From contig CM097885.1 in the NCBI GenBank assembly GCA_044892525.1, positions 22,136,001 to 22,200,000 on the forward strand: a DNA stretch of 64,000 nt, read 5' to 3'. This DNA comes from Schmidtea polychroa. Taxonomy: Eukaryota. Below the pieces are notes generated by a model, which saw nothing but the letters and a program-made list of their open reading frames with translations, ran no database searches and was not told the origin of the DNA. The position numbers and the translations under genes were made by a program. Shown piece by piece: positions 55 to 54,707 of this stretch. Numbering within the stretch: position 1 is the stretch's first letter; every line of letters begins with the position of its first letter.

Positions 55-207
55 AGTTAGATATATTGTTGTTTTAATAATTAGGAATTTGCGGTTTTTG
101 TGAATTTATTAAAACTTGTTATTTATAAATTCTTTGATTAAATATATATTGTTAGTTTCAAGATTTTTGCTGCAAATTTAAAGATGGATCTAAAAATGGA
201 TTTAACT
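55..207 (+). repeat. 5' LTR of element A (AGTTA...TAACT)
   Basis: Direct repeat of 4595-4747; 5-bp terminal inverted repeat AGTTA/TAACT. Confidence 0.93.
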
Positions 208-4400: not shown

Positions 4401-4585
4401 TTTTTGAGGTGGGGGAGGAGGTACTCGTACGTAAAGAGCCGCAGAACAGGCACAAGGATGGTATGCAATACGATGGCCCATATAAAATCGCCAGATTTCT
4501 ATCACCTCATCGAGTCGAACTACATTCACAAGAAGGAACGAAAGAAAGAAGAATCGAGTGGCTGAAGAAGTGGAAAAAGTCTTAA
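1422..4585 (+). pseudogene. pol: Pol of element A (PR-RT-RNaseH-IN), disrupted
   Basis: PR LWDSGA; RT YLDD; RH LDTDAS...TDHKAL; IN HHCC, D..D..E and GPY; in-frame stops at 2637, 3222 and 4118 and frameshift(s) near 3375-3470. Confidence 0.93.
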
Positions 4586-4594
4586 GAAGGGGAG

Positions 4595-4747
4595 AGTTAG
4601 ATATCTTGTTGTTTTAATAATTAGGAATTTGCGGTTTTTGTGAATTAATTAAAACTTGTTATTTATAAATTCTTTGATTAAATATATATTATTAGTTTCA
4701 AGATTTTTGCTGCAAATTTAAAGATGGATCTAAAGATGGATTTAACT
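4595..4747 (+). repeat. 3' LTR of element A
   Basis: Follows the PPT directly; followed by TSD TTTAT. Confidence 0.93.
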
Positions 4748-5100
4748 TTTATATTTTTAAGTTTATAATTTATATTTTATGAAGTTAAATTTATAGTTTA
4801 TATTTCTAAAGCTAATATAATTTTATAATTTATACTTTTCAGTTTATAATTTACATTTTTATGAAGTTAAATTTATAGTTTATATTTCTAAAGCTAATAT
4901 AATTTTATAATTTATACTTTTAAGTTTACAATTTACATTTTTATGAAGTTAAATTTATAGTTTATATTTCTAAAGCTAATATAATTTTATAATTTATACT
5001 TTTAAGTATATAATTTATATTTTTAGGAAGTTAAGTTAAATTTATAGTTTATATTTCTAAAGCTAATATAATTTTATAATTTATACTTTTAGGATCAATT
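4748..5100. repeat. AT-rich tandem repeat, ~84-bp unit, decaying to ~5650; also at 1-54
   Basis: Repeated GAAGTTAAATTTATAGTTTATATTTCTAAAGCTAATATAATTTTATAATTTATAC; element A is inserted into this array. Confidence 0.85.
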
Positions 5101-8031: not shown

Positions 8032-10330
8032 CAGTGGTGTCAAACATACGACCCGACACCCTCTTACATGCATCCCACAGCCGCCTTCAAAAATACTGCA
8101 AATCATGTAAATATAATTATAATTATAAAAATATCAACGAATGCAGCCTTGGTAAATGTTTTATCTGGAGTCTTTCTTATATACGATGCTCCAGCCCAGC
8201 AGTACTTTGAAGTTTGAACAACCTCGTTAGTTCACGCAAAGTGTCAAATGTGTCGTCCACACGTAATGTTTTGCATGACAAATTACAAATGATCATGTAA
8301 GACTACCGACAAAACATTAGTCGTGTGAATGGACCTTAGTGTACTTATCTGATGGTCTGGCACCAGCAAAAGGGGTACGACGATAATTCCCTCACACCAA
8401 CAGACAAGTTGTCGTACTTGTCTAATTTAGTTGTTCTGGTCTAATAGTAAATATTACTCATTTATGATAGTTTGTAGCATTTAAGCACTTTAACTTTTCG
8501 AATTTACATTTGTTACATTTGTGTTTTGTTTGTAATTTTACTTATATTGTGTTTATTTTCTGAACTTATAACCATATTTTTAAAGCAAAGAAATGTTAAC
8601 AAAGAGTGTCGGGTGGTGCAGAAAAATTGGAGACTATCATACTTTTGGTTGGCATTAATGGAAAGCCAACATGTTTAATTTGTAACAAACAGATTGCTGT
8701 TGCCAAAGATTATAATGTTTGAAGACATTACAGGTTTTTGAAAGGCAGCCAAAAGAGATTAATCTTTCACATTTTCCTACCTTGAAGTCCTTGCCAGGCA
8801 CAACTGAACTTCCAGCTGAAATCAACACTGAATCAATATTTCCAACTTGAAGAATGAGTTCCAAGAACGATTTGCCGACTTTAAATACCTTGAAAAGGAC
8901 ATTACCATTTTTTCAGAATCCGTTTTCGGTTAATGAAGCACCAGATCTACTTCAGCTAGAATAAATTGAGTTCCAGTGCGATTCTTTTTTGAGGAACAAA
9001 TTTTTCAATGTTGATATTGGCACATTTTATCAATATGCTGGACCAAATTATTCTATGATTAAATTTTTAGGTTCGGAAGTAAATACGTATGTGAACAATA
9101 TTTTTCTCTAATAAACATAAACAAAAATTGGCTTCGCTCGAAACTTTTTAACGAGCACCTTATGTCAATACTGTTGGGTTATTGAGTTGGTGACAATATT
9201 TGTAAATTCAAACCTTTAATCTGGCTCCAAAGCGTGTTTATTAATTCGCAATTCAACACTCTCGAACACAATAAGCTTTATTAATATCCACACGTAATAG
9301 TACAAATTTCAATTACAACCAATTAACTATAACCAATTTATCACACAGAGCTTATTTCGACACTACGTGAAGAATAGCCCTTTCTGTAACCACAGCAATA
9401 ATCACTAGCCGTCAACTACTCAATTACAGAGTATGTTGATCGATTGTTCTATTTGCTTTGACCCCACAATTTATTTACTCCACCTTTACTTTATATTCAA
9501 TTTTATAAAGGATTCTCTTTTTACTCTGTTTTGATTCCCCTTTTTACTCTGTCTTCTCTAATTTTACTCTACTTTTTGCCTCTAATTTCGTTTCGTTTTG
9601 CTCTTAACTTCGTTCTGTTTCCGTTCTACTTTTCGCTTCAAATTTGTCTAAATTTGCTCTCAATTTGTTCTGATTTCATGTTCACCTGTTTTCCCTTATA
9701 TAGTTCGCTTCTCTTGTGGCACTCCAGATAATCGAGTGTTTTTCCACTTTCCATCTCCTGCTTTCCCCGACTGTCCCATTTTTATCTCTGACAGCTGTCA
9801 AGTTGTTTTTTCCCTTTTTCCTTTCTTGTTCGACCGCCTTCTCCCATCAATTCTATTATCACCGGCAAGCTGTCGAGATAAGGATATTGTTGTTTTCCTT
9901 TTTCCCTGATTTCAAAATTCCTTTTCCTTTTTGTACTAATTAATTAGTACTGACCTTGATTTTTATTTTCTTGTTTGATAACTTTTATTTCCTTTCTCTT
10001 TCTCATTTTTGATTTCTTTTCACTTCCGTTTTCTTTTCTGAGTCTCTATAGATCGTCCCGTTTGTCATGGCAATCTTCCCTCAGGTAATTTTATTTATTT
10101 CTTTATGAATTATTATTTAGGTATCCTCAACAATACTGAAGGTTGCTACACCACAGTCATTGGAGATCAAACTTTGATGAACTTGCTAATAGCAAGATGT
10201 GTCAAGTGTCTGGAGGCAACAGTAACAGGCAGTAATGAAATAATATATAAGAATATATACATCCGCTAACGTATATATATATATATATATATATTATTTA
10301 TATTAAATTTTATATTATTTGACATCCCTG
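8032..10330 (+). mobile_element. Internally deleted hAT (GTF2IRD2/SPIN/Charlie-like) transposon
   Basis: TIRs CAGTGGTGTCAAA / TTTGACATCCCTG; perfect 8-bp TSD GAGTAAAG; transposase relics (KPTCLIC..KDYN; LQLE.IEFQCD; EHLMSILKVA..CQVS). Confidence 0.9.
9172..10132 (-). mobile_element. Solo LTR (961 bp) nested in hAT
   Basis: TGTTG...CAACA ends; 4-bp TSD ATAC; removal restores the transposase frame HLMSILKVATP; minus-strand TATA-like CTATATAAG near 9695-9703. Confidence 0.85.
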
Positions 10331-11080: not shown

Positions 11081-12017
11081 GAACTGTAAACACAAATACA
11101 TTAGTTTACACTACCCATGATGGCATAGTGCGTACACTCTGTTTGTCTCCTCTAATTTAGCAAAAAATGTGAAAATTTCTATAGAATACTACGTGGCTTC
11201 AGTCTGCTCTTAAAACCTATCTTAATTTCTCATTTAATTGTCTTCATTAAGTTTCATCAATTCTTTATTTCATTTTCGATAAATTTTTGTTTTTTGCTTT
11301 TTAATATTATTTTATATCATTTTATTTTTATTTTTGTTTGTTATTGTGCTTTTTATTTTGTTTTTAAACTATTTTGTTATTATTCTCTTTTTTAGTTCTT
11401 TTAATTGATCCTTTCATATTCTATTTGAATTTTTGCCTGTTTCTATTCTTATGTCATCGAGCTAGATGAACAAAATAAGATCAGAGTTTGTTTTTCTCCA
11501 ATATAATTAACTTTATTTAGTTATTTCTAATTATTTCTAATATGACTTTTAATTAATTTAAATTAATAAATAAACTTCCAATATAATTACAATAATTACA
11601 AATGATTACAATATTACAATAACGCCAATATCATTAAAATATGTGAAACTGAGTAAGCAATATATTTAGTAGAACGAACAAAGTTTCTGATAGTTTACCG
11701 AATAAATATCAATAAATAAATTTTGAATTCCATATTTTACACCTAGATTTAAATTTTCATTATATACTGAATCTCATATCATTTATATTATTATCTTTCA
11801 GCATTTGACCATTCCAGAAAGTAAGTATCTGGACACAGAAATATTTTACTATATATCTTTCAAAATTCATTTATCAAATATCCTCTAAAATTTCTCATTG
11901 ATTACTTTATTGATATTCGTATATTCTCACAAATAATCATTTAATCATTAAAATAATCATGTAATTATCAACTTTTTGCCTTTTAAATGGTTAAATATTA
12001 AGTTAAAACATTTATAT

Positions 12018-12053
<36 letters not shown>

Positions 12054-12099
12054 GAATTATAAATATTTAATATAAATTTAGCCATAAATTTAGACTATT

Positions 12100-12900
12100 T
12101 TTATAATGTTGTAACTACATAACTTTAGACTAAAATAACTTTGTAAAATTAACAACATATTTGTTTAAATAATTGAAACTAAGATAAATAATTAAAATGC
12201 AAATTAACGGTTTAATTCCAACACGATTTTTAGTAACAATTAGTCATCTTATAGCTGTTATATCAATTTTTCTTAAAAGAGTACGTTAGAATAAATTGGC
12301 TATGAGATGCTTATAAATATTCTAGGAAAGGTACACAACTATCGCGACAAGTGAAGATCAACAGTAAGTAAATATTTTACTCTTGTATTTCTCTTGATGT
12401 AAATTGATAAGGTTTATTGCCGGATTGTCATTTTCAATTTTTTTTCTTCTATTCGAATTGGGTAGTTTCATATGCGGTGTTACTATGTTTAAAAATACCT
12501 ATTCATTGTTCAGTAAATTTAAAATCGTTCATTAATTTAGTTATTGATTTATATTTTAGTGAGCATAATTCATGTTAGTGGAACGGTGTCATTGTGCTAC
12601 CTTATAACTAATAAATGGTCTGTATCGTATTTCTTTAACATATTTTATGGAACAATACTCGTACCAGTGACTTCAGAGATCATTTATATAATTTTCCGAT
12701 TGTGCATTCGACATAGTTTGTAGTGATATTTGAATAGATGAAATTTATTTTCTAATTTAATCGATTCTATATATTCATGTGGAAATTTTGGAAAGGATTT
12801 ATAAAAATTCAAATAATTCTAATAGAAATATAAATTAATAAAAAATTAATTTTGAATTTTAATTTAAAATTTAGTTTATTGAATTTTCTATGACAACAAT
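12100..12900 (-). mobile_element. Degenerate repeat, probable non-LTR retrotransposon ORF2 3' part (copy 1)
   Basis: Colinear similarity with 25740-26600 (e.g. AAATTAACGGTTTAATTCCA; ATGTTTAAAAATAC); the family assignment is weak. Confidence 0.4.
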
Positions 12901-13291
12901 TATTTCAGCCAATCAATTAATTTGATTTGATATGCCACTGCGAATGAGAATCAATATATCTAATTTATTGCGAATTACATTCTGGTTGCTTGAATATTAG
13001 CTTAAAATATATAATTCTATGAAATTTATTTGAATGATAATATTTCTGAATGACTCTAAAAGTTATGCTGAATTTTGAATTTTTTTATATACATTTTCAT
13101 GGTTTCATTCTTATCGTGATATTTTGTCGTGAAATCGGTTTTATGCATACAAGATACAAGGAGATTTGAGCATTATTTAGAGACATAAAATAATGTATAA
13201 TTTCCGAGTTCAGAAATCATTTATCAGTATCAATTCGTAGATTAATTGTGCTGATCACAGTACTTGGTCAGAACCAACTACTAATATAGAC

Positions 13292-13746: not shown

Positions 13747-14362
13747 ATATAGACAGCCACCTATGACACCAATTTTTAGAAACAAACATTCAAGTTTTTC
13801 AAAGCCATAAAATCATGATAATACAAAAATACTATGCTAATCTAAGTCAATTATTCCATGTTAATTCAAAATCTCTACAATAATTGCAAATTTTAAAACA
13901 CTTCAAACCATCTTGAAATCGCAATACACTTACATTCAAACAAATAATGTCATTTTTACTCTATATTAACTTCACGCACATTTTGTGAGGCCAAATTAAC
14001 TTGAGCTGAAATTTGGCAAGTAGATTTGTTATCGAGAACACTGCATGCTATCAACATTTCAGATCGATCTGATCACGGAAAGTTGGTTAATTTAAAAAAT
14101 ATTGATATGTAAAATCTAATATTATTTCCTTGTTTCAATATAAATTCTTAATTTTTCATTAGTGTTGGATTAAAGAGATAACGTAATTATATCTAAAATA
14201 TATTATATAAATTTGAACATTATGGCCATGTAGGTCTTAAGGTGTTAATTAGTGTTGGGACATTAATTAATTATTTTAAAACAAATTTAAAAAAGAACAA
14301 GTTAATTTGTTTAAATATTGTGTTTGTTAAATAAATAAATGTTTTGAATTTTTTTTGTAACT

Positions 14363-15271
14363 ATGAGTCTTACAAATGGTGTCAGAAACTCCGAAGTTGA
14401 CCATGTCTCGGTCAAAATTCCGGCCATTTTTCAAAATCAAAGTCTATGGTTCAAGCAAGTGGAGGCCAGCTTCAAGATATCCAGAATTACAGAAGAGACC
14501 ACAAAGTATTTTCATTTAATTTCAAATCTCCCAACAACGTTGCTAACAAAGTACGAACACTTACTGGACTCAGAAACCGAACTTCCATACACCACTCTGA
14601 AGGAAGCAATCTTAGCTGGTTTTGAACTATCAAGGACAATATCACTAACTGACCTGATGAGAGACGACTGCCTGGGAGATCGATCTCCATCAGAAGCGCT
14701 TCAACACATTACAGGACAAATACAAAGAATAGACACATCCATGGACCCATTCAACAGTCCTATATCTCGGGAATTATTCATGCGACTACTACCAAGATCT
14801 GTTCAAGACATCCTATTATCGATGCCATCGACGGACCTTCGGAAATTAGCGATCACAGCAGACAGAATAATGATATCAAAGCGTCAATCAGTGAAGGCAA
14901 TTGAACACGAAGATTGCAATAATCAAGAAGTAGGAGACAAGACGAGAACAATCATGGAACTGCAGGAAGAAATAAATGCAATACGACAACAATTGAACAA
15001 TAAAAACACCGGTAAGTTATGTTTTTATCATAGTAAATTTGGGCATAGGGCGATGAAATGTCAACCGCCATGTGAATGGAATGCAAATCAGAACGACAAC
15101 TATCAATCGAGGAAGTACAACAGAGAGAAATATCAAAATTTCGAACCGTCAAACATATCGTCAAGGAACAACAACAACAATTTCAACAAAAACAGCAACT
15201 TCAACAAAAACGGCAACTTCAACAGCAACAACCACAGAGAGAACCAGGGAAACGAGAGAAGGTTTCATTGA
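14363..15271 (+). CDS. gag: Gag of element B (302 aa)
   Basis: VKIP...LWFKQVEASF N-terminus and the CHCC motif CFYHSKFGHRAMKCQPPC typical of CsRn1-clade Gag. Confidence 0.9.
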   Translation: MSLTNGVRNSEVDHVSVKIPAIFQNQSLWFKQVEASFKISRITEETTKYFHLISNLPTTLLTKYEHLLDSETELPYTTLKEAILAGFELSRTISLTDLMRDDCLGDRSPSEALQHITGQIQRIDTSMDPFNSPISRELFMRLLPRSVQDILLSMPSTDLRKLAITADRIMISKRQSVKAIEHEDCNNQEVGDKTRTIMELQEEINAIRQQLNNKNTGKLCFYHSKFGHRAMKCQPPCEWNANQNDNYQSRKYNREKYQNFEPSNISSRNNNNNFNKNSNFNKNGNFNSNNHRENQGNERRFH

Positions 15272-18228
15272 ACCCGAACAGTGAAACCTACAAAATCATA
15301 TCTTCTTTCTCGGGACAAAACAACTCACAAATATTCGAAATACCAGCAATCATAAATGGAGAACAAATTGACTTTCTCATAGATACAGGCGCTGATCTCA
15401 GCATCCTTCCCGCAAACCGTTTCAAGCCTGATAGAAATGGAGAACATCGATCTTTAGTATCCGCCAACAATTCATCAATCACATACCACGGGCAGAAAAC
15501 GATTGAATTTACTATTGAAGGATTCAGAACTAAATTTATATGGTCTTTCGCTATAGCCGGCATATCTCGTCCAATTCTAGGTGCAGACTTCCTGGCCCAT
15601 CACAAAATCGATGTTAGTTGTCATTCCAGATCAATATGTTGCCCTAGCAGTAACGAAAGAACAGAAGCGCGGAGAAGCCAATGTGCCAAGATCTGTGCTA
15701 CAATCAACAAAGAAAACACATTAACCACGAAACTACAAATTATCACCAATGGTTCCCCTGTAGCTCAAAGACAAAGACCACTTTTTGGAGAAAAATTAGT
15801 TGCAACAAAGAAAGAGTTTGACAGACTCTTAAATGAAGGTGTGATTCGGCCAAGCAAGAGTGACTGGGCATCTCCATTAGTAGTGGTTAAGAAGCCGGAT
15901 GGATCATGGCGGCCTTGTGGAGACTACAGAATGTTAAATGAAATAACCCAGCCTGACAGATATCCACTTCCGAGAATTCAAGATTTACTGAACAAGATAA
16001 ACAACCCTCATGTATTCACTAAATTAGATTTGGAAAAGGCATATCATCAAATTCCGATTTGTGACGGAGACATTTCAAAGACAGCAGTCATAACACCTTT
16101 TGGATTGTTCGAATATACGAAGATGCCTTTTGGACTTCGAAACGCATCTCAAACGTTTCAGAGACACATGGACAACGTACTCCGAGAACACCAGGAGCAT
16201 TCCTTATCCTATATTGATGATGTTCTGATATTCTCCAAGACTGAAGCAGAGCATAAAGAACACGTGGCAAGGGTGATGGCCAGTCTTCAAGCCGCTGGTC
16301 TCACAATGAACCAGAGCAAATGCGAATTCCAAACCGAAAAGGTAAACTTTTTGGGTTTTGAATTAACAAAACAAGGAATAAAACCCTCTGAAGAACGCAC
16401 GTTGGCAATTAGCAATTTAAAGAAGCCAACTAACAGTCAAGATTTACGACGTTTTATTGGTGGCATCGGCTATTATCACTGGCTAATTCCTAGGCTGTCG
16501 GATACACTGAGTCCACTGCATGACTTGTTACAAGAGTCGGTCAATAAAAAGGAAGATCTCTTATGGCAAGACTGCCATACACACGCTTTCATGAGTGCCA
16601 AAAATTCGGTACGTGAAATCAGCAACGTTTCATATCCTAACCCGTCCAAGCCATTCCTACTATGCACTGACGCATCTTCTAAAGCAATTGGAGCAAGTCT
16701 AAGTCAAATCAACGAAGAAAATAAATCATTTCCAATCGCTTTCTTTTCGAGGAAATTAAATCTAACCGAACAGAAGTATTCCACCTTTGACAGGGAGTTA
16801 CTGGCAATATTCTTATCTATAAAACATTTTAAGCATTTTTTAGACGGTTCTCATTTCACAGTCATGACGGACCACAAACCTTTACTACGAGCTAGACATA
16901 TGAAAGATCCATCGCCAAGGCAATGGCGAATAATCGAATACCTTGATCAATTTGATTTTACCATCGAATTCATCAAAGGGGAAGATAATGTAGTCGCCGA
17001 TCTCTTGTCCAGACCATGCAGTAATCAAAACCTACAAGTATCAACGGTGGAAATTAATTTCGTCGAATTCACGAAAGAAAGGTTAAAAGAAGAACAAAGG
17101 AAAGATCAGACCTTATCTACACTGAAAAATGCAAGTCTCCAGTTATGTAGTACTACGGATGACATTCTCATTGACAATTCTACGGGGGAAACCAGAGTAG
17201 TACTGCCAAAAATATTCCGACATCAAGAATTTCTAAGAATTCATAACATATCGCATCCAGCATCCAAACCAACGATAGAACTGATCAAGGCGAGATATGT
17301 GTGGCCTCAGATGAAAAGCGAGATCAGAGAGTGGTGTAGACAATGTCAAAGATGTCAAAGTGCAAAAATAGCAAGACACACACATGCTCCTTTGGGCACT
17401 ATAGAAACCAAAGGAAGGTTCATTACAGTCCATCTAGATATAGTGGGTCCCCTTCCGAGCGTCGATAACAAGAGATACATCATGACAATGATAGACCGAG
17501 GAACGTCATGGGTTGAAGCAATTCCTATATATGATATCACAGCAGATATGATCATAAGAACATTTGAAAGAGAGTGGATCAGTCGCTTTGGTGTTCCAGA
17601 AATTGTCATAACAGATCAAGGAACACAATTTGAATCAGAAAAATTCTCCAATTTCTGCAAGGTAATGGGAATCGAAAGGAGGCGAACAACAGCCTATCAC
17701 CCTCAATCCAATGGGAAGATAGAAAGATGGCACAGAGCCCTGAAAAACTCAATAAGAGCCGCATCAGAAGACTCCTCCAAGATGTGGGCTCATGATCTCC
17801 CCAAAATTCTACTCAGTCTAAGAAACTGCACGAAGTCCAATGGGTCTCCATCAGCAGCGCAACTCACATTCGGTTGTCGAGCTAGATTACCAGGAGATTT
17901 TGTCATTAGTGAACCAACATTAACCGATATCGAAGAGAAGTTGACATCGATTCAAGAGGAAATCGACTCACAACTAAATAACAAACAAACAAGCCAACCA
18001 AAAGAACATAGTTTTGTAAGCAAACTATTAGTTCACTGCCAAAGAGTGTGGCTTCGATCTGAATTTAGGAAATCGTTAGAAGATCCGTACACGGGACCAT
18101 ACGACGTCATAGAAAGATCCGATGACAGTAAAACGGTAAAAATCAAAATCGGAGACCAAGTAAAAAATGTTAGCATCGACCGTCTCAAGCCATGGATTGG
18201 AACGGACGAATTTGCTCCGCAATCTTAA
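15247..18228 (+). CDS. pol: Pol of element B, expressed via -1 frameshift at G_GGA_AAC (15247-15253)
   Basis: FLIDTGAD protease, YIDD RT, TDAS..TDHKPL RNase H, HHCC plus DDE integrase, GPY; pol is in the -1 frame relative to gag. Confidence 0.93.
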   Translation, partial: GKREKVSLNPNSETYKIISSFSGQNNSQIFEIPAIINGEQIDFLIDTGADLSILPANRFKPDRNGEHRSLVSANNSSITYHGQKTIEFTIEGFRTKFIWSFAIAGISRPILGADFLAHHKIDVSCHSRSICCPSSNERTEARRSQCAKICATINKENTLTTKLQIITNGSPVAQRQRPLFGEKLVATKKEFDRLLNEGVIRPSKSDWASPLVVVKKPDGSWRPCGDYRMLNEITQPDRYPLPRIQDLLNKINNPHVFTKLDLEKAYHQIPICDGDISKTAVITPFGLFEYTKMPFGLRNASQTFQRHMDNVLREHQEHSLSYIDDVLIFSKTEAEHKEHVARVMASLQAAGLTMNQSKCEFQTEKVNFLGFELTKQGIKPSEERTLAISNLKKPTNSQDLRRFIGGIGYYHWLIPRLSDTLSPLHDLLQESVNKKEDLLWQDCHTHAFMSAKNSVREISNVSYPNPSKPFLLCTDASSKAIGASLSQINEENKSFPIAFFSRKLNLTEQKYSTFDRELLAIFLSIKHFKHFLDGSHFTVMTDHKPLLRARHMKDPSPRQWRIIEYLDQFDFTIEFIKGEDNVVADLLSRPCSNQNLQVSTVEINFVEFTKERLKEEQRKDQTLSTLKNASLQLCSTTDDILIDNSTGETRVVLPKIFRHQEFLRIHNISHPASKPTIELIKARYVWPQMKSEIREWCRQCQRCQSAKIARHTHAPLGTIETKGRFITVHLDIVGPLPSVDNKRYIMTMIDRGTSWVEAIPIYDITADMIIRTFEREWISRFGVPEIVITDQGTQFESEKFSNFCKVMGIERRRTTAYHPQSNGKIERWHRALKNSIRAASEDSSKMWAHDLPKILLSLRNCTKSNGSPSAAQLTFGCRARLPGDFVISEPTLTDIEEKLTSIQEEIDSQLNNKQTSQPKEHSFVSKLLVHCQRVWLRSEFRKSLEDPYTGPYDVIERSDDSKTVKIKIGDQVKNVSIDRLKPWIGTDEFAPQS

Positions 18229-18648
18229 GGGGGAGTTGTGTTGGGACATTAATTAATTATTTTAAAACAAATTTAAAAAAGAACAAGTTAATTTGTTTAA
18301 ATATTGTGTTTGTTAAATAAATAAATGTTTTGAATTTTTTTTGTAACTATGAGTCTTACAATTAGTATGAAAAGTTTTAGTTTTGAGTGAAATATAGAGT
18401 TTCATAGATCATGTTTTTATGGTTGATTTTTTGTTATAATTCAGACATTTTGTCGTATCTATCTTTCAGTGCCTGCTTTATCTGAAATGTGTTTTTGTAC
18501 TAATAAAACATTAACATAGTAATGAAAAATATTTAAAAATTAATCAATTATGCTAACTGTGAAATGGGGTACCGTTATTATTGGCTGCATAGGGCTTCAT
18601 ATTGCATGTGAAAGGCTCTGTACTTGGTACTTTTCAATTACCCACCTG

Positions 18649-18979: not shown

Positions 18980-19728
18980 ATCCACTTGGGTTGAAAAATT
19001 GTCAATGCTTTTATAATTGATCCTTTAAGAGGTTTGCATTCTGCTATTATTAGTTTTAGCTTCGTTCAAATTACTATTTTACTTCACAAGATAAAACATA
19101 AGTTGATAAATTAAAAAATTAAAAAATTAATTATATTAAATAATGAAGAAATACAAATAATACGGTTTTAAAATATTTATGATGTTGTACCAAGACTGAC
19201 AATATTTAGAATGGTTTCAACATCATGGCAAAATTTTCACATGTAATCAACAAGAATTTGAATTTAAAATATGAGAGCAAACACGAAATATCACCAAGAT
19301 ACCAAAAATTAACAATAAGGGAATAGAAATATATATAAAATTCAAACCTAGCAACAAGTTGTATAAAATATCAAAACATACGAAAAACAAGAAATTGATT
19401 ATATTACAAATGTGAGGTTTTAAATACTCAATTTATGTCACTTATAATTAAATAAAAATAATATTGATTAAAAAATTTATTGATTCAGATATATACTTTA
19501 AACATTGATTTACCTTCACCGAGCAGATTCACTCTGATAAATGCTTTAAATTTAGGTGTATGTTTTTTTAAGGATGCTTAAATAATCGTTAAAATATAAA
19601 TTTATATTAATTAATTTAAATAAAAAAGAAATTTAAGTGTTTTAGGAATAAAAATTAAAGTACAGTATTAAGATTGGTATTTTTTTTAAAAGTTAATAAT
19701 TTTTTTAAATAAAACCTTTTAAAACTTC

Positions 19729-22700
19729 TGTTGGCGTATGTGGGGAGAAAAGAAAACTTATCACCAGACCACACATCCCGTTCATTTGACTCAGATCCTT
19801 CCCCATCATACTCCAAGTGACCTTACAGATATTCCCTCATTTGAGCCCGTGGAGGTCTTACACGTTGGTGATGCTCACATGGGTTGGAGTTAGTTAACAG
19901 GTGAGCCCCTGCCTTAGGACTGCTATTAACCTCCTCACGGTTCGGGTTCCAAGGTGCCATAGAAGGTCTTACCCTTACACTTACGCACAACTCGGTTCGA
20001 CCCTGGTCCAAGGGGACGACCTTTATCCGATGACTTTCACTTCGATTCAGCAATCAAACCAAACTATGCACTCAACAATCTCGTAAATAACTCAATAAAT
20101 GTCAAGAAAAATTTTTTTTATTAATTCCGCTACGTACATTGAATACACCCAAAAAAAATGTATATACACCAGTGTCTTGTTAGATGATGAGGGTAAGCCC
20201 ATCACTACATTTACCCTAGACAAATACTACAGGACAGGGCCCAAAAAATATAGAGTAAATGTGTACGCCGAAGAGCGCAGATAGATAAATATTCCAACAA
20301 ACAACCCAATTTCAAGCAAATCAATTCAACCCAAAGACAACCCAGCAATCTGAAAACTGACTAAATCGTCGAGCAAACTATGCATATTCTATCTTATCAA
20401 CAATTGTGTAAATATAATTGACTATTCTATCTTATTAACAATTGTGACAATCCATGTATATTTTATCTTATTTATATGTATATTTTATCTTATTTTCCGT
20501 CTGAATATTTTTATCTTATTTTCCGTTTGAATATTTATGTAGAATGTTAATATTTTATCGGGTGTATGTATTTAATAGATTTTATTAGTTAACATCTTAA
20601 TTATATACAAGGGAAAAATATTTTAATAATTTTAATTTGATATTTCAAACTAATAACAATAAATTTCAAAATTCAATTTTTAATTGTAAACTTCAATTAA
20701 TTTTATATTTCAAACGAATTGTAAAGGAAGAATTTTTTAGAACAGCTGGTTTAGAACAGCTGAGAAATTTTGACAAAAAACAATAACACTTTAAATAAAA
20801 TAATTAATTTTAAAACTAGGAAATAATAATCAATTAAATTTTAAGTATGTAAATTAACAACAGCTGCCCGTAAAAATAGTATAAATAGCGACAAAAAATT
20901 AGTTTTAGTCGCCCAAAAAATAGCGCAAAGATTTTTTATTCGAAGGTAAATCCTGAGGATAATTCAATCATTTGAATCAGCACAAAACGATTCACAAATA
21001 GTAAAAGCTTACGAAGACACAACACGCATATACAACAAATAACAATAAACATACTTTCTTTTGCACGCATTTCAGTTGGAGAATTTAACAAACGAGTATC
21101 GATTTTTCAGAATTGTAATTGGATTATATTTGGTAAATTTTACTTTCAATAAACCTTTATATACGTCTTTATTTGTTTTGTTATATATATAAGAACCAGT
21201 AAGTTGAGTGTTCCCGATTAACGAGACCTCAACAGTCTAATGAACAACTAAAATGCACAAATGAATTGTTAGTAGGCAAGGATCGCAGTTAGGCCTGTCA
21301 GGACGAATTAAGCTGGTCACCGACGTTATGTCTGATCATTGAAAAATTTCCCCTTCCGCTAACATTTCGTCTATGTCTACGGGTAACCGGCGATCCGCAA
21401 GATACTGGATTCCATCAGCCGGAACCACTCTAAATATTTCTTGGTTTGGGATTGAATGGGACTCGGATATTTCCTTGATGGTGGATTGGGCCACCGATAA
21501 CGAGGCTTCTAGTGCTGCTATGGTGTTTCGGCGCTTTTTATTTTTCTCAGCGCGTGTCGGCCGCTTACGTTTTCGATTTGGCGCTGTAGTTTCAACAGTT
21601 GGCTGTATCCGAGGAGGCTGAAGAGTTGGAGCCAAGATGGGGTTCGATGGACCCGTTGTCGTGGGCCTAGGACTCGAGAGGACTGGAGCGAAGATGGGGG
21701 ACAATTGCGGGTTGTGTCCCTTGCAGCGGGTTGTTGATGGAACCTCGGAAACCTGATGATGAATCGGGAACACATTTGTCCCGTCTTGAATTGGGTATTC
21801 TCGAACCCTCTTCGAGATCTCGACGTCTGTGTAGATTTTATGCAGGGCCTCTGATTGGGCCTTTATCGTGAGCCTCTGGCACCTACTTTCCTCCAGGAGA
21901 CTGTCGCGACAGTGCTCCAATCTCGAGATTTTCTGACGCTCCTCCTTCATTTGTGGACGGGAGAACCACGTGCCCTCGTATAAGTCAATACGTTTCTTTA
22001 AGGCCCCGATATAGGCGTGGAGTTTATTAATGTCTTCATTTTTGTCCGAACAGGAGAAACATGGACGAAGATCTTTTCCAGATTTAATTGGTGCAGTCAT
22101 CTAAATTTAAAGAAGTTTTTCGATCATGGTTAAAGGCAATCATTGGTGTATCGTTTACAGAGATGTCAGGTGTTTGGTGCAGCATCCTCAGGCGTTTCCC
22201 TCGGTGATCCTCAGCGGATCTCTGGTCACTCGCAAACGTTCATACCCCTTCACTCTCAAGCATGCCCATTCAGTCACTCCAATTCATGCTAATTAAGATA
22301 AAACGGGGATTGTTAACGATGTATTCACTATATTCCCAACATACAGGGTATTTTAGTTTTACCAATTATTATTTAATCCACTCCTCACTTCGGTAAGCGT
22401 ATATTTTTACATTTACAAACTCCTTATTGTTGTAAACCATCAGCTGGGCTAAGGTCATTTGATATTATGACCGATTACGCGATTGTTCATGTTATACTAC
22501 GGGAAACGAATAAATTCCCCTTGATGTCCTCAACCTCGTGGTGCAGAGAAATAGATATATTTAGGAAAATTATAAGTCTTAATTAATTTTAGCAGACAAT
22601 TGTAGAATTTATTGACTTCGCGACGTAGATATTGTCATGGAAAATCTCACCGTTCTGTGCTGTCGTCACTCTATCCCCTGTCCTGTGCGTGCAAAATGGC

Positions 22701-24995
22701 GGTTTATGAATTTCTATTAAGATGCGATGTTGCCGGTGTTCATCATCATTAGTCATGCCTTGCTGCGACTCACTGTTAAATAATGAAGAAAATTTTATCG
22801 TCTAGATTGTTATGACACCATCTCGATCTAATACACTACACTTTACTACTACAGCGATATCGACCTGCATACTACACTAGATCGGGTAGACTCGTCGGTG
22901 TGTATCGCTGCGTTCATCAGGCTTTGGGTGTAGTCTTAATACCAGATTCTGTTGGACGATAAAGATTCAGTTTTGCTTGGACTTGTAGAAAACGATTTGT
23001 CAACTTTTCGGAATTATCTATCACTCTATCAGTTGGGATTTTAATTCCTTGAGTACATCTCTTATGATTAGTGTTTGCTCGGGATAACTGCTGTCAACCT
23101 TGTCTGTGTGGTGTCGTAGTTTCTTATCCGTCGACTGCAGCCAATTCCTAATAGAACAGAAACGAAAGATAATTTCTCGACTCTCGTCGACGGCAGTTTT
23201 ACTCAATACTATAGCGAGTATTTGTATTAATTATCTGAGAATGTTTATGTTTTATCTAGATCGACGGTTGAATAATGATAGTGGCCTGTCGAACCTCGAT
23301 TTCTATGTCCACTCAGACTTTACAGATAGACGACGCTAGGGATTTATGCGCTAACGACTTTCGATACGAGCTATCAGACAGATCCCGAAAAAATACCGGT
23401 AATTATGGGAAATTGTTGGACATTCTCTCTAAGTATGGTCATTCGAGCACTCCTCCCAATTACGTTAATAGGCAAGCCATGCGCAAAAAATTCACTCCGA
23501 GTTATATGGATCCTCATGAAGTCGAAAAACAAGATACAAATGTCTAAATCTCCTGACTCGTTCTCATTTTTGGAATTTACATTATCTTTCCATCTAATCG
23601 AAATCTTGGTGGACTGCATGAAAAACGAAGATACTTTATGAATGATCGCGCTCGGTGAAAGGAATCTCACTCCACAATCGGATATTCAACCTGCTGAGTC
23701 TCCTCACCCCTCATGACATACCCAAGAAGGCATTCATTTCTGCCGCCGTTCTTGCACCGTCATGAGGGACCATTCGACTTGTTCTCATGAAAGCAATAAT
23801 TCGTGCACAAATTATGACAATAAAATAGTAAATAATGAGCAAATAAATCAATCAAAATCTTACCCGGCGACCCTAGCATTTGGACTCCAAGTATGATGTC
23901 ATCTTTTCCCTACAATCACACATTTGTCATGACCTGGCGAACATCTCATACAACCATTATCATTTTCTCCAAGTATCAATTGTCTTTCGACATCTTCTGG
24001 ATGCATAAAATGACAAACTCCTCGTGGTATCTCTCCTCACTGTGGTATAACTCCTGCTTGTCCACATCATACTTGGGGCTCCCAGATGGTACAGTCGCCG
24101 GCACCATGAAGGAAAAAGCTATTTTCATTTAAATAAATTTATTGCAAGAAATGAGTTTGTTTTTATTTTCAACCATTAACTAAATCAAACCAATAAACAT
24201 AAATAAATCAACATACTTCAAGCTTTGAAAACTGGATTAAATTGAACTTAGAACTTGTCTTGAATAAATTTGTCGTTAGTCGCTAAGTAATCCTCCCTAG
24301 ATTTAGTTTTGAAATCTCTGAGTTAGTTCACTGTGGTTAAAGGTTCCGTAATCTGTAGAGTAGTTCGAATGAATGAATTTTTCCCTGTAGAGTATTTTGA
24401 AAAGTGGTACATAATGAATGAATTTTTACCTGTAGAGTATTTTGAAAAGTGGTACTCTACTAATTTTTCGCGTTTCTTATATACTATTTTTCGTCCAATC
24501 AGGACACGACTTGTTTGTAATTTCGTTATTTATTATTATTTTTATGTTTTTATTATAATATATTAGATTTTAATAACTTAACTTATTTCTTATTATTATT
24601 TTATTTATTTTCTTATTTTATTATTTCTTTCTCCTATTTTTCCTGCGGATTTATTGTTACTTTATTGTAGTATGATTTTTTGTTTTAATTAGACTTAAAG
24701 ATGGTTTTATTTTTATTTATTTCTTTAATTTCTCGCTTTTTTACTTATTCTATTTCTACTTTATCCGCTGTGTGTCGTAAATCATTTCCTTTTTGTTTTA
24801 TTTCCACATCTAAGGGGTTTATTGGGTTTTATTTATTTTGGTTGCTTATTCCTATTCTTTTATTGGTATTTTATTGTTTCTTCCTACTTACTACTGAGAT
24901 TTGATGGTATTTTATTTTTTATCTTATTTCATTTATTCTTCGAGGTTCGCTTTTCTATTTGATCCAGTTTTTCCACTTCAAATTTTAGCCCAACA
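19729..24995 (-). mobile_element. 5267-bp TG..CA unit, probable giant solo LTR with coding cargo
   Basis: TGTTGG...CCAACA termini; 4-bp TSD CTTC at 19725-19728 and 24996-24999; no gag/pol motifs and no internal LTR pair; minus-strand TATA-like TATATAAG ~24476-24483 with a nearby CCAAT. Confidence 0.72.
21336..22100 (-). CDS. Orphan 254-aa protein within the 5.3-kb unit
   Basis: GC-elevated uninterrupted ORF; CxxC, predicted coiled coil, Pro-rich linker, basic NRKRKRPTRAEKNKKRR segment; ATG directly preceded by a TTTAG acceptor-like site. Confidence 0.6.
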   Translation of the reverse strand: MTAPIKSGKDLRPCFSCSDKNEDINKLHAYIGALKKRIDLYEGTWFSRPQMKEERQKISRLEHCRDSLLEESRCQRLTIKAQSEALHKIYTDVEISKRVREYPIQDGTNVFPIHHQVSEVPSTTRCKGHNPQLSPIFAPVLSSPRPTTTGPSNPILAPTLQPPRIQPTVETTAPNRKRKRPTRAEKNKKRRNTIAALEASLSVAQSTIKEISESHSIPNQEIFRVVPADGIQYLADRRLPVDIDEMLAEGEIFQ

Positions 24996-25739
24996 CTTCA
25001 CGTATTTTTACATTATATTTAATCAAATTTAAACCATTGAAAATCCATGAAATGGATATAAAAACGAAAACCAGCAAGAATTTAAACCCTAACCTAATAA
25101 AAAGGAAAAAGCAAAACATATCTCGACACTGTCAGAGATAAAATGGGAACAGTCTGGAAAATGCGGGAGAAAGAGAAATGAGAAACATTAGATTATTTAG
25201 AGACATAAAGTAATGTATAATTTCCTGGTTCAGAAATCATTTATCAGTATCTATTTATCAAGTTAAAAATAATAAACATTAAAAAATTGAAAATTAAATT
25301 AGATAGATAAAAATAATAAAAATATAATAAATAATCGAATAAAAAAATAAAAATAACAATTAAATAAATAAATAAAATAATAAATTTAAATAAATAAATA
25401 AAGTACGTAATTGAAATAAAATAATTAATTAATAAAAAGAAATAAATGAAAAAATTAAATTTAAATTTAAAAAATGATTAAATTAGTTTATTTTTGATAA
25501 TTTTAACATAATTTTAATGACATTGTGATGACCTTGAAAGGTTATTGTGGTAAAAGTGCACGGTGTCGTTACTACTTACCACTACATTTTTATAACTTTT
25601 GTGATATAATTATAAAAAATAATTTTTTTATTAATTTAAGTATTTAAAATCTATGTAACATAATATGATCTCCGTTTCTTAACTAAAACTTATTATTAGA
25701 AAAAATTTCTTCTTTAAAAGTGAAATTTAATTATCACTC

Positions 25740-26600
25740 GATAACTGATGATGTTAATCATTTGTTTAATTCGAATAAAGTAACATAATTGTTTGTTCAT
25801 TAAATTGTATCGAATTATAATATGAAAATTAACGGTTTAATTCCAGCAAGGTTTCTAGTTTTACTAAGCCATTTAATAATTATAATGTCTATTATTTTTC
25901 AAAGAGTAAGTATGTAATTTAATTTATAAAGATATTAAATTTAGGATAGGGTAAACATAACAAAATAGAATCTATTGAAGATAATCAGTGAGATATAATT
26001 GAAAGAGATTATAATTACAAAGCATTCCAATTAAGGTTTTCCATGGGATTATCTATATCAGTTGTGTTCATTCTATTTGAGCTGTGTAGTTTCGTAAGTG
26101 GCGTAACAATGTTTAAAAATACATATTCGTTATTTGGTAGAATTTATATTAATTATTAAACTTAAGCTAATCGTGATTAGTAAGCGTAGCTCATGTGGCA
26201 GGAACGAGTTGTTTAAGTTATTTCATAAATGAAAAGTGGTCAATTGAAAAGTTTTGGTATATATTTTATAGCACTGTTCTAGTTCCTGGAATTGCCGAAT
26301 TTGTTAACGTTATGACCAGGTTGTGTTTCCGTCAGAGTCTTTAATGTGTTTTAGTTTTAATGAATTTTTATTAAATGCAATATTGGTTTTATTTAAATTA
26401 ATGTTGGTTATTTACGTTTCAATGTTTTGTGAAATGATGAGTTTGGAAATATAAGTATTTAGGATAGATAAACAGAGCATTTTCGGGACTTATGATATTA
26501 TTTTTAGTTTTTTAGTAACGAATTTGAAGTTATACTGTTTAAAAAAACAGTTTGCTTTTAAAAGAACTTAAAAATCCAAAATGCTACCGTTGATAACAGA
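25740..26600 (-). mobile_element. Degenerate repeat, probable non-LTR retrotransposon relic (copy 2)
   Basis: Paralogous to 12100-12900; broken minus-strand frames (NEYVFLNIVTPLTKL...). Confidence 0.4.
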
Positions 26601-27439: not shown

Positions 27440-29400
27440 AAATGGTTGTTGACGGTCCGGCACCGGTCAATGAGATCTATATAGCCGGTCCGCACCATGG
27501 TCCAAGAAACTGGTTAAAAAAATTTGGCCTAATATAAAATTGGCCATGCTCAAATTCATACAAATTTCATGATATATTTATGATTATATTAAAAGGAAAA
27601 AGATAGCTGTAATAAAGGAAATGTCTGAAGTTGAAGGAATTTGATTTAGCTTCTGATAATATTTCTTTCCTGATTAATTCTTCCATAATTTTAACTTTGA
27701 TTTTATCTATTTGTTAGTAATCTGCATTTTACCCGTTCGTGCCATTTCCGACGCAATCCAAGATACAATGACTTGTTTAGCCATCCGTCACCCATTGAGG
27801 GACCAAAGTTAGTAATGTGTCGTGTGTGGGTGAGTGCACCTCTGTACACTATTATCATCGAATATTCCAATGGGTTCGCAGGCTGGAGATAGAAGGCCTG
27901 TGCCCGACTTCAGTTAGACACCTTCACATTATGCCCACTGGCGCAACTCCTGAGGCCGGTGTCGGTCCGATGGAATTCAACGCATTCGAACTGGAAACAC
28001 AAATAACTACATTTTAGTTTATTATGGTATCACACTCGGTTATCACAATAATTTAGTGGTAGGTTACAGGTAAGCATATATTTTACCTTGTCGTGATGTT
28101 TCCAGCATAATCCAGAATACAAAGGATGTGTTTTACCGCTTGATACCCATTGAGTTACCGAGTGGGGATTGCTCGTAAAACGCGAGCGCACTACTTGTAT
28201 TATAATTGTCGGGCACTCGTTTGGGTTCACGGACTACCGATAGAAGGCTTATGTCCGATTTCTCTTGGTCCTTTTGTTAGATCATTTTTCCAAACCCATT
28301 AAACATTTATCATACTCGCCAGACATTTATAATTCATTCGCTTTCTCATTTCTTTGGGACTGAACCACGTGCCTTCCAGCTCTCAGCACCGCTTCTTAAA
28401 TTTCAGGAGTCTCCGTCTTAAATATTCCACCTGGGCTTGAGTTTCCTTTCAATCGGTCCGCAAGTTCTTCAATAACTTCAGCACTGAATTATAAGATTAT
28501 TCATTTAAGTTATATAGTATTTGAAGTGGTTACACCATTTTCAAATCCGCCAAGAATTTATTTGGTGGAATGCCCATAGACGTGGATATATGTTGAGGGA
28601 ACCCTTTCCATACCTACCTTATTATTATTTGATGTTATCACAAAGTTACTAAGGTATGTAGTCTGCACCGTAATTACTTTATTTAGCTAGCTAGAGTCGA
28701 AATTATTCCTAGGCCTTTTAGGGTGAAGAAGATGAAATCGAAACAAAATACAAAACAATATAAATGGATAAATGACAAAGATATATATTAAGCAAATAAA
28801 AATTAGTCACAAGACTATGATCACAGGTCATACATTGTATGGATAACAAATTTGGAGTTAGTGAGTCAACAAATTAAACGAATCAAAAGAAATGAATATA
28901 GTTATTACGACGCCTTTCGTCAGATACGGTGCGACTGGCTGGGGTGATTGGACAATTGAGGAGTTTGTATGGGCCCGCTCCTGCTCCATCTGGATACGTG
29001 TTAGTCAGTCCGTGTCGGTTCCTACGATGTCTACCTTGTCGGGATCCCCGAACTTTTCACTACTTATCTGGAACTCGATTCACCGTAGCCTGGCCACCGC
29101 AACTCCGATGTCCATGATTGCCAGTATACAGGCCTCATGTAGTAGATTGTTTTGGGCCTCTTGTTTGACCCAGACCGGGGCTCCTAGCTGGCGTCCCAGC
29201 CTGACGACCTGGCCAAATTCTGCTACTGGTGCCATATCCACCGGGTCCAGAGTCTGGTTACGGAGTTTGACTTGTCCATCCCCACGATACTCTGCACTTC
29301 TTTTCCTTGTTTGACCATTTGGGGGCGATGTGTTTTAAGACGAGCTAGTTGTGTATAGGTCGATCTGATCTGGTTGGTTGTGCAACCTTAATGGTGAAGT
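27440..29400 (-). mobile_element. Degenerate GC-elevated coding relic, possibly retroelement integrase tail plus accessory ORF
   Basis: Broken minus-strand frames, e.g. NQFLGPW near 27495 (GPY/F-like) and a ~140-codon frame at 28890-29320 with two stops. Confidence 0.3.
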
Positions 29401-31015: not shown

Positions 31016-31929
31016 AATATTCAAATCTTGTTCCAAAAATGTTCTTTAAAACAAACTTTTAAAACGAAAACTCCAGAAAGTTCGAAAAATAAATCCAAAA
31101 TTCAAAAACAAATAAGAATCAATTCGACAAATCACAATTCCAACGAAAACATACAGATCAACTGGGCGATGTAAGCCTTTTGTCGCAATCAGTAAAACTA
31201 ATATTTGATTATTACTTTCAAAATTTCTATAAAGGTGAAACATTTTATCGAAAACACTTATATTTTTAAAAATTTTGATAGGCTTATAAATTATTTTTTA
31301 GAAATTGAAAGATTTTAATTGTTTTATATAATAGTTTGGTTATGCGTGAAAATAAATATTTAAGCTGTTGCTGACAATAACATTATCGAGGTGCATAAAA
31401 TTTGAGAATTATTTAAACACTTCCTACGATTCCAAATGAAAAAATTAAACCCTGCAGCATAATTAATTTGAGCATCTGAGCAATTATTTCATTGTTCGGG
31501 AAATGAGAATGTAAATAAATTTCACGTTTAGAGAATATAACTCTCTGAAAATATATTTAACTTTTATAAAAATTATGTTTATTTTCCCTGATTTTCCCAT
31601 TTCCTTCAATTTCACAGTTTTGAGAATTAAAACTATCGGGAAAAAATATTTTTAGATAGAATTTTTTTGAAAAAAATTAATAATTTAAATCTTCTCATGG
31701 GGATTTGTTGTTGTGATTGTAACTAACTTTTCGCATTTCTATAATTTCTATTACATAAAATCATCATGCAAAATGTCAAAATATAATTTATTAACTATTG
31801 AAAGTGTGAATATACAATTTATTTGAACTTAAACTCTTTGTACAAATTAACAGAAAAAATCATTGTAAAAGAAAACATTTCAATGTCAACATGTTTTGAA
31901 TTGATATATAAACGTTATAAACTAAAAAT

Positions 31930-32290
31930 TATATTAATAATAAAAATTATTAATAATAATAAATAATAAAAATTAATAAATAATAATAAATAATAATAAT
32001 TAATAATAAAAAATAATATTAATAAATAATAATATTAATAAATAATATTAATAATAAAAATAATAATAATTAATAATGAAAATTAATAAATAATAATAAA
32101 CAATAATAATCATTAATAATAAATATTAAAAATAATATTAATAAATAATAAAAATAATAAATGATAATAATAATAAATAATAAAAATTAATAAATAATAA
32201 TAATAAATAAAAATAATAATAATTAATAATAAAAATTAATAAATAATAATAAAAATAATAAATGATAATAATAAATAATAAAAATTTATA

Positions 32291-32321
<31 letters not shown>

Positions 32322-32535
32322 TTAAAAATAATATTAATAATAAAAATTATTAAATAATAATAATAATAAATAATAATAATTAATAATAAAAATTAATAAA
32401 TAATAATAATATTAAAAATAATATTAATAAATAATAATAAATAAAAATAAATACTAATAAATAATAAAAATTATTAATAATAATAATAAACAATAATAAA
32501 AATTAATAAATAATAATAATAATAATAATAATAAT

Positions 32536-32566
<31 letters not shown>

Positions 32567-32774
32567 AAAATAATATTAATAATAAAAATTATTAAATAAT
32601 AATAATAATAAATAATAATAATTAATAATAAAAATTAATAAATAATAATAATATTAAAAATAATATTAATAAATAATAATAAATAAAAATAAATACTAAT
32701 AAATAATAAAAATTATTAATAATAATAATAAACAATAATAAAAATTAATAAATAATAATAATAATAATAATAAT

Positions 32775-32805
<31 letters not shown>

Positions 32806-32956
32806 AAAATAATATTAATAATAAAAATTATTAAATAATAATAATAATAAATAATAATAATAATTAATAATAAAAATTAATAAATAATAATAATATTAAA
32901 AATAATATTAATAAATAATAATAAATAAAAATAATAATAATAATAATAATAATAAT

Positions 32957-32990
<34 letters not shown>
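31930..32990. repeat. Compound (AAT/AAAT) low-complexity satellite with higher-order repeats
   Basis: About 1 kb of almost pure A/T, followed by (TA)n at 33012-33065. Confidence 0.95.
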
Positions 32991-32991
<1 letters not shown>

Positions 32992-33007
32992 CAATAAATT
33001 CACACAT

Positions 33008-33441: not shown

Positions 33442-54707
<21,266 letters not shown>

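Follow-up and report, generated by a model that had tools for sequence, protein, structure and literature searches.

A predicted spliced gene inside a putative giant Ty3/gypsy solo LTR of Schmidtea polychroa

The minus strand of a 64,000-nucleotide stretch of Schmidtea polychroa DNA (contig CM097885.1; hereafter the window) carries an ORF of 254 aa at 21336..22100, and we asked what kind of gene this is and whether it belongs to a mobile element. In 500 second-order Markov simulations of this region, an ATG ORF reached 254 aa or more just once (median 95 aa). The ORF, present as the initial annotation had described it, appears to be a whole coding sequence; the solo-LTR-like unit that surrounds it has two predicted promoters with a common core, which face each other with the ORF between them. 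The anatomy claimed for its protein, a coiled coil, a Pro-rich linker and a basic patch, is also seen by helix and composition analysis: a helical core (aa 17–101) is followed by a linker (aa 117–175) with 13 Pro, a patch (aa 175–193) with 11 K/R that runs into a helix, and an acidic tail. Helices are predicted at residues 17–41, 48–89, 92–101 and 183–214.

Modelled as a homodimer, residues 15–118 score 0.48, against 0.01 for the best of three controls; at least 86% of the contacts agree between runs, and pLDDT is at least 76. This mark is reached by 21/30 solved homopairs and 0/23 single chains from microbes, and by 17/29 homopairs (animals 7/16; 1/7 for those without an older solved relative) and 0/30 single chains from eukaryotes, with the caveat that long amphipathic helices in general may model as dimers. 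The model suggests that the conserved core is a homodimeric coiled coil, and we infer that the protein binds nucleic acid via its basic helix; a coiled coil together with a basic patch is an anatomy that fits a regulator. A Pfam search with the ORF gave zero matches at E≤0.1 (no REV, bZIP or TRP28), a PDB sequence search gave nothing better than E 0.13, and Foldseek gave zero matches at E≤0.001 in viral and PDB libraries. The best VIA-align hit (CsoR, Z 9.1, rmsd 1.7 over 68 aligned residues) heads a list of unrelated helical hairpins that differ little in score and is uninformative, and the best Atlas likenesses, 0.86 and 0.88, are mere leads.

The ORF had been taken for an orphan, a claim contradicted by 15 database relatives that share its helical core, with core identities of 32–43% to the ORF and 35–96% among themselves. 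A word-index search of proteins with the ORF alone gave none among 358 candidates, and an exhaustive search found nine. Eighteen core positions are at least 90% conserved, and W45, L68, E71, R73, Q75 and H115 are invariant. Thirteen of the 15 relatives are fused to 13 different, unrelated host domains, the pattern to be expected if gene models had picked up a mobile gene; none is fused to reverse transcriptase, RNase H or integrase, or to domains of the Burro/GYPSM1 gag-BIR-BCL2-env-pol polyprotein of ~5,000 aa. The family recurs in other animal-type gene models as a conserved, mobile-looking one. An NRRRRERRR-type patch, resembling that of Rev, is found in nine of the 15, and the ORF's own basic patch, RKRKRPTRAEKNKKRR, deviates from this pattern. 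Neither the ORF nor any scanned relative reaches the Pfam gathering score for Rev (PF00424), and homology to Rev is not supported at this score. One of the nine relatives scanned, P0006, gives a REV score under the 22-bit cut-off (E 0.0013, 19.1 bits), and this score stems from a low-complexity Arg run.

A decayed second member of the family lies about 6 kb from the ORF, at 28338..28490 on the minus strand (10 bits, i-E 2e-4 in a six-frame search). It has two in-frame stops, is truncated after a GTWFSP motif, and is preceded by an acceptor-like sequence, TCTTATAATTCAG, at 28484 with a 118-nt AG-free zone, the longest of 62, two neighbours reaching 97–98 nt. Thirteen candidate pairs of element ends were found for this remnant, none convincing. 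DNA likeness between the remnant and the left end of the solo-LTR-like unit is not significant (shuffles did as well in 27/200 and 8/200 cases), and nhmmer gave no match between them. A short motif chosen post hoc, GGGTT-n-ATAGAAGG, occurs at 19944, 27872 and 28223 and nowhere else.

The unit that contains the ORF spans 19729..24995 (5,267 bp; no strand assigned). Its ends, TGTTGG...CCAACA, form a 6-bp inverted repeat, and it is flanked by a CTTC target-site duplication at 19725..19728 and 24996..24999 (plus strand); beyond the perfect repeat, an ungapped inverted match of its first 30 nt to the opposite end is loose (16/30). The decamer CCAACA+CTTC occurs once in the window, and the maximum-likelihood GC change point, at 19728, falls within 1 nt of the unit's left end, although we note that it was calculated only after the ends had been spotted. 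A comparable partner with ends and duplication exists for 88 of the 2795 TG sites in the window, and for 9 of the 1434 with GC-containing decamers; around the ORF there are seven TG..CA pairs with a duplication and inverted ends of at least 5 bp, three of them with at least 6 bp. The unit has the TG...CA ends, short inverted repeat and 4–6 bp target duplication by which a Ty3/gypsy solo LTR is recognised, and a neighbouring gypsy LTR likewise starts TGTTGGG. Consensus motifs for a Pol II promoter and for poly(A) addition occur on both strands. Neither a second copy or paired LTR nor a linked PBS, PPT, gag or pol was found in the window, and related loci were seen in 0/22 stretches of viral contigs and 0/599 of metagenome contigs. 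By its ends, the unit would be the solo LTR of a Ty3/gypsy-type element; the ORF is very likely a mobile gene borne by an LTR, and we regard an LTR-encoded accessory gene within the unit as probable.

We then considered how such a gene could be expressed. The ORF had been proposed to be the last exon of a spliced transcript, and the signals named in that proposal are all present on the minus strand: a TATA motif, TATATAAG, at 24483–24476, donors CGG/GTAAG at 23866–23859 and GA/GTGAG at 23672–23666, an acceptor, TTAATTAG, at 22296–22289, and a 58-nt GT..AG interval (22158–22101) ending TTTAG/ATG. By a simple U1-match score over 128 GT dinucleotides the donors rank 1st (23863), 18th (23670) and 63rd (22158), and by a crude pyrimidine score over 154 AG dinucleotides acceptor 22289 is 2nd and acceptor 22101 is 5th. 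The TTTAG that abuts the ATG looks like a real, credible 3′ splice site (22101..22186, minus strand): its 84-nt AG-free zone is the longest among 157 AG (background 42/2976), and CTTTAAC, about 30 nt upstream, may be its branch point. Three relatives, P0006, P0012 and P0013, have three different upstream sequences joined to an identical 'IFDN-M' start, which fits an acceptor immediately before the ATG. The exon chain proposed earlier fares less well, leaving 23 upstream ATGs where the unspliced RNA would have 54; use of its best donor (23859..23866) leaves at least 15. We find no support for the use of donor 23670 or of the 58-nt interval, whose donor is weak.

No upstream ATGs remain with donor 24429 or 24216. 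The former, CAG/GTAAAA, would end a putative 26-nt leader exon that starts 28 nt past the TATA (leader region 24353..24455, minus strand) and is repeated, with a second copy at 24410–24385 and a third one, TACTCTACAG, which is partial and runs up to an acceptor at 24353; we count in favour of the proposed transcript that this duplication starts 28 nt past the TATA. The latter ranks third of the 128 GT and opens a U-rich candidate intron of 37 nt (GTATGT...TTTAG, 24180..24216, minus strand). Exons upstream of the ORF are predicted to be non-coding, a Met being aligned with Met1 in 11/15 relatives. The search for in-frame coding exons upstream gave open tails of merely 3–22 aa, and none of nine sequences, comprising upstream open frames of 70–103 aa and the stretch 28903–29334, has a credible Pfam match; one of the nine, 28330–28561, was read in a different frame from that of the family. 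We consider a spliced leader before the ORF likely.

The promoter core on the ORF strand (24476..24499, minus) would consist of an ATTGG (CCAAT box) followed by AAAAATAGTATATAAG, and an AATAAA at 21168..21173, 163 nt past the stop codon, probably serves as poly(A) signal for the ORF mRNA. A weak proximal pair of AATAAA on the same strand (24167 and 24143; 24138..24167) lies inside the putative long intron. AATAAA is frequent in such AT-rich DNA. The core recurs just once in the 64 kb, on the opposite strand, in a facing promoter (20872..20951, plus; AAAAATAGTATAAATA) with CAGCTG boxes upstream at 20743, 20757 and 20861, a donor AAG/GTAAAT at 20946, and weak AATAAA signals at 21044 and 21148 (21044..21153, plus). 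This facing arrangement of TATA, donor and AATAAA is as tidy as the one on the minus strand, so that layout does not settle the orientation of the parent element.

The overall best explanation, which we hold tentatively and at a little under even confidence, is a giant Ty3/gypsy solo LTR with a self-contained accessory gene acting in the manner of Rev or Rex. The unit would have been left behind by recombination between two LTRs of a giant retroelement. As read from the sequence, transcription would be driven by the TATA at 24483 and start at about 24455, a long 5′-UTR intron would be removed from donor 24429 or 24216 to acceptor 22101, translation would begin at the first ATG, and poly(A) would be added near 21150. 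A start site more than 4 kb from the LTR end, which is required in either orientation, is unusual. The protein, dimerised in the model by its coiled-coil core and probably contacting nucleic acid by its basic helix, would control the element's own RNA, so that intron-containing full-length RNA escapes splicing or early polyadenylation; this would be a Rev/Rex-type role within an LTR that has several donors and poly(A) signals. We slightly favour the view that the ORF is sense to its parent element, and a role in RNA processing or export, as against other regulatory roles, is possible but doubtful. A search for a leucine-rich CRM1 export signal in the family gave three loose regex matches. No strongly folded response element was found (best of 94 windows z −3.3, with 20 shuffles each), and there is no Rfam match in 19600–24500. 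More speculatively, the LTR-held spliced gene could be a Rev-like switch between a short spliced LTR message and unspliced genomic RNA, each solo LTR being an autonomous source in trans and an invertebrate Ty3/gypsy lineage having arrived independently at the strategy of complex retroviruses; we think this unlikely.

A somewhat unlikely alternative is that the LTR-borne gene is antisense to its parent. A plus-strand element would have U3 at 19729–20905, a short R to about 21170 and a long U5, and the dimeric basic protein would act on DNA or transcription, in the manner of HTLV-1 HBZ or of the antisense ORFs that plant Grande/Retand elements carry. Such a gene would retain its intron at no cost, since the genomic RNA is the opposite strand. 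Consistent with this are the plus-strand signals, TATAAATA at 20880 with the three CAGCTG boxes, donor 20946 and the two AATAAA, and the basic region that continues into a heptad helix; weak bZIP neighbours in Atlas (0.77–0.83) are mere leads. Published work describes a donor placed before poly(A) in foamy virus LTRs (PMC3694450) and antisense ORFs for nuclear or DNA-binding proteins as common in plant gypsy elements (PMC11963269, PMC7264820). Against it, the leader duplication is anchored to a start site on the minus strand and would fit an R on that strand, and a Pfam search with the ORF gives neither bZIP nor TRP28. The protein also lacks the Asn/Arg pair of bZIP domains.

It is improbable that the protein instead suppresses host silencing (the piRNA/PIWI or dsRNA response), made in trans by solo LTRs and, for example, coating dsRNA from the facing promoters. 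Many silencing suppressors are small basic dimers, and the convergent promoters could yield dsRNA; PIWI control of planarian LTR elements is described in PMC8532177. The ORF protein, however, has no GW/WG repeats and no known suppressor fold, and its structure matches no viral one at E≤0.001. That no retroelement gene is attached, together with the loose match of the ends, would suit a small non-autonomous cut-and-paste element, or a cassette of a larger element such as a Polinton, carrying the gene as cargo; we consider this quite improbable, given perfect inverted ends of just 6 bp and the shared start of the neighbouring gypsy LTR. Since about 3% of TG sites have a chance partner, the unit's ends and duplication could be coincidental and the ORF a lineage-specific host gene, which is highly improbable in view of the 13 unrelated host fusions, the decayed copy nearby and the left end lying at the GC step.

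LTR elements are known to carry accessory genes, most of which have no established role. The ORF defines a conserved protein family that has no match in Pfam, PDB sequences or viral structures, and this mobile-looking family would account for a set of chimeric gene models found in protein databases. If the terminal repeat contains the gene's promoter and intron as well as its poly(A) signal, solo LTRs would be active genes rather than dead remnants, and a Rev-like function would show a way for a very long, donor-rich LTR to be copied unspliced. An effect of giant planarian elements on stem cells has been reported, as cited in PMC13465017, making a trans-acting product directly testable by RNAi.

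Rev, Rex and Rem are made from spliced message, and Rev itself is a short hairpin. These are small multimerising proteins with an Arg-rich patch (PMC3856414), which the family may resemble: its core is modelled as a dimer, and nine of the 15 relatives have the Arg-rich run, the K/R patch of the ORF being of another pattern. The ORF differs in its 70-residue coiled coil, in showing no homology to them by Pfam and in lying wholly within the LTR-like unit, and neither an export signal (by regex) nor a response element (by fold windows and Rfam) was identified in the ORF or unit. Within planarians, the closest published counterparts are the giant gypsy-like Burro/GYPSM1 elements, with an internal region of up to 25 kb, a total above 30 kb and accessory ORFs (PMC6431247), dimensions that imply LTRs of some kb. 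Section 7 of that paper places their accessory ORFs in the internal region or in the polyprotein and names none inside an LTR. Within the articles covered on planarian LTRs there is no description of an ORF inside an LTR, and three supplementary files of PMC11410931 held no match. With plant Grande, RIRE2 and Retand (TRP28) and with HTLV-1 HBZ, the ORF would share the character of an extra LTR-element gene with its own promoter and a nuclear or nucleic-acid-binding product, whose function is regulatory or not known. Those genes are found in the interval from pol to the 3′ LTR (PMC11963269, PMC7264820), whereas the ORF is part of the repeat itself and has persisted in a solo copy. The TRP28 domain (PF04195) of the plant antisense ORFs is absent from the ORF and its relatives, and a bZIP/HBZ-like identity is not supported either, with no Pfam bZIP match at E≤0.1. 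Proteins coded by LTR sequence are also known in MMTV (sag) and HIV (nef), whose ORFs lie in U3 in sense orientation and are expressed by the provirus. In the unit described here, by comparison, a single repeat apparently holds the ORF together with its promoter, intron and poly(A) signal, and a promoter lies upstream on either reading.

The 254-aa minus-strand ORF at 21336–22100 is present, as is every motif that the initial annotation had named, each where it had been placed; when the region was simulated 500 times, an ORF of this length arose once. The accompanying description of the ORF as an orphan does not hold. A word-index protein search returned no relatives, an exhaustive search with the ORF recovered nine (E values from 2e-11 to 2e-4), and profile searches added six more. 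Over aa 41–116 the ORF is 32–43% identical to these relatives, which are 35–96% identical among themselves and fall into several subfamilies; 18 positions are at least 90% conserved across the family. Met1 aligns with a methionine in 11 of the 15 relatives, the other four lacking that region in the alignment, and the ORF is therefore a complete coding sequence. An NRRRRERRR-type patch lies downstream of the linker in nine of the 15, and several others end or are gapped there; one relative has a sub-threshold Pfam REV score. All 15 are unnamed single-member entries (P0001–P0015), and 13 of them are joined to housekeeping domains, a different one in each case (GDC-P, SNF, CRAL-TRIO, ABC, S8 protease, actin, L21, LSM14, MCM6, PTP, sybindin, M1 peptidase and ankyrin), with none fused to a retroelement enzyme. 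These chimeras are probably gene models that have swallowed a mobile exon.

No family, sequence or fold match gives the protein a name. AlphaFold with 16 sequences predicts helices at residues 17–41, 48–89, 92–101 and 183–214 and a disordered proline-rich linker (mean pLDDT 67, pTM 0.33), and a 10-sequence run is similar. The core, aa 15–118, is modelled as an in-register homodimer with a score of 0.48 against 0.01 for the best control; the runs have at least 86% of contacts in common, with pLDDT of at least 76. In calibration on microbes, 21 of 30 solved pairs and none of 23 single chains came up to the dimer mark; on eukaryotes, 17 of 29 pairs (7 of 16 from animals; 1 of 7 without an older relative) and none of 30 single chains did. 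The model supports a homodimer of the core, which falls short of showing binding.

Around the ORF, a search found seven pairs of TG..CA ends that combine inverted termini of at least 5 bp with a 4–6 bp duplication, one of which, TGTTGG...CCAACA at 19729–24995, is flanked by CTTC at both ends. Its ten-letter end signature occurs once in the window; of the 2795 TG sites, 88 have a comparable end partner, and when only GC-containing signatures are counted, 9 of 1434 do. The left end coincides with a step in GC content from 15% to 46%, with a change point at 19728 that was computed after the ends had been spotted. Neither a second copy nor gag or pol adjoins this repeat, and the simplest reading, though not a proven one, is that it is a 5,267-bp solo LTR.

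The surrounding DNA is AT-rich and eukaryotic and contains hAT-type remnants as well as two Ty3/gypsy elements with short LTRs. A compact plus-strand Ty3/gypsy element at 14235–18361 has 141-bp LTR matches (95.7%), open, overlapping gag (302 aa, DUF7041) and pol (1050 aa) frames, and ATTAG on both sides, read off the sequence. The other, at 55–4747 (plus), has 153-bp repeats (97.4%) and a pol in pieces, and is directly followed by an 82-bp tandem array (4748–5091). A decayed further member of the ORF family lies at 28460–28338. Adjoining this remnant are two GC-richer plus-strand copies, 64% identical (27717–27911 and 28070–28262), both with a GGGTT-n-ATAGAAGG motif that is also present at 19944; upstream of it, 28903–29334 (minus) is GC-rich and nearly open, with 84 aa and then two stops, and gives nothing in Pfam. 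Elsewhere are a Gln/Pro/Asn-rich 222-aa ORF with a small basic patch and no Pfam match (33442–34110, minus), a fragmented hAT/Spin-type transposase (39766–41931, minus; zf-C2H2_12 and Dimer_Tnp_hAT, mostly sub-threshold), a DUF659-like transposase with an open 494-aa frame (57035–58519, plus) and a 1.1-kb (TAA)n-derived satellite with a higher-order period of 242 bp (31923–32999). Three repeats lie outside the solo-LTR-like unit: an old direct repeat (60%; 11973–12880 and 25589–26513), a near-identical 64-bp repeat (94%; 13172–13235 and 25192–25255) and an inverted 104-bp match (76%; 9722–9824 and 25101–25202).

The 64 kb contain two instances of the core AAAAATAGTATA(T/A)A, one on the minus strand at 24491 and one on the plus strand at 20872, and the two promoter cores face each other with the ORF between them. 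Putative donor motifs follow within 70 nt, at 24429 (minus) and 20946 (plus), and each core has two AATAAA motifs within about 340 nt (24167 and 24143, minus; 21044 and 21148, plus). A further AATAAA lies 163 nt past the ORF stop; the unit's minus strand has 37 AATAAA hexamers in all, and the motif is weak evidence here when taken alone. In the minus-strand leader, a 26-nt segment that begins 28 nt downstream of the TATA and terminates in CAG/GT recurs 45 nt on, and partially at the acceptor 24353 (minus). The leader (24353–24455, minus) has an exon-end repeat that precedes the donor and recurs at the tail of the intron, and its 45-bp tandem duplication retains GT in the first copy only.

The ORF transcript is probably spliced, because 54 ATGs separate the start site from the ORF; because the AG directly abutting the ORF's ATG has an AG-free zone of 84 nt, the longest among 157 (background 42 of 2976); because the longest such zone of the remnant (118 nt, 62 sites; two others are about 98) is at the matching place; and because three relatives have differing upstream sequences joined four codons ahead of the Met. 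The exact exon chain first proposed fares poorly: it leaves 23 upstream ATGs, and by a crude score its donor at 22158 comes 63rd, and the one at 23670 18th, among 128. Its donor at 23863 ranks first of 128 by that score and leaves at least 15 upstream ATGs. With donor 24429 or 24216 spliced to 22101 instead, no upstream ATG remains.

If the leader repeat arose by reverse transcription, genomic RNA would come from the minus promoter, and the ORF would be sense to its parent element. The plus-strand promoter module, on the other hand, matches the arrangement described for foamy virus LTRs, with a donor ahead of the poly(A) signal (PMC3694450). We slightly favor the sense orientation. The main rival is that the ORF is antisense to the parent and its protein DNA-directed, which has parallels in the Grande/Retand ORFs or HBZ (PMC11963269, PMC7264820). 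A silencing suppressor is a possible role. The modelled dimer of an Arg/Lys-rich product, a presumably spliced LTR message and a repeat that would have to be copied with its 2.3-kb intron intact point to a Rev/Rex-like role, by analogy with the systems described in PMC3856414. Neither an export signal nor a response element was found, however, and the ORF's own basic patch deviates from the NRRRRERRR pattern of its relatives.

Accessory ORFs of LTR elements are already known as a kind. Neither this family nor a gene within a planarian LTR is described in the literature covered; the primary papers on Burro, the giant planarian gypsy-like elements, lie outside that coverage and may do so. Burro internal regions reach 25 kb and totals exceed 30 kb (PMC6431247), and LTRs of about this size are therefore plausible.
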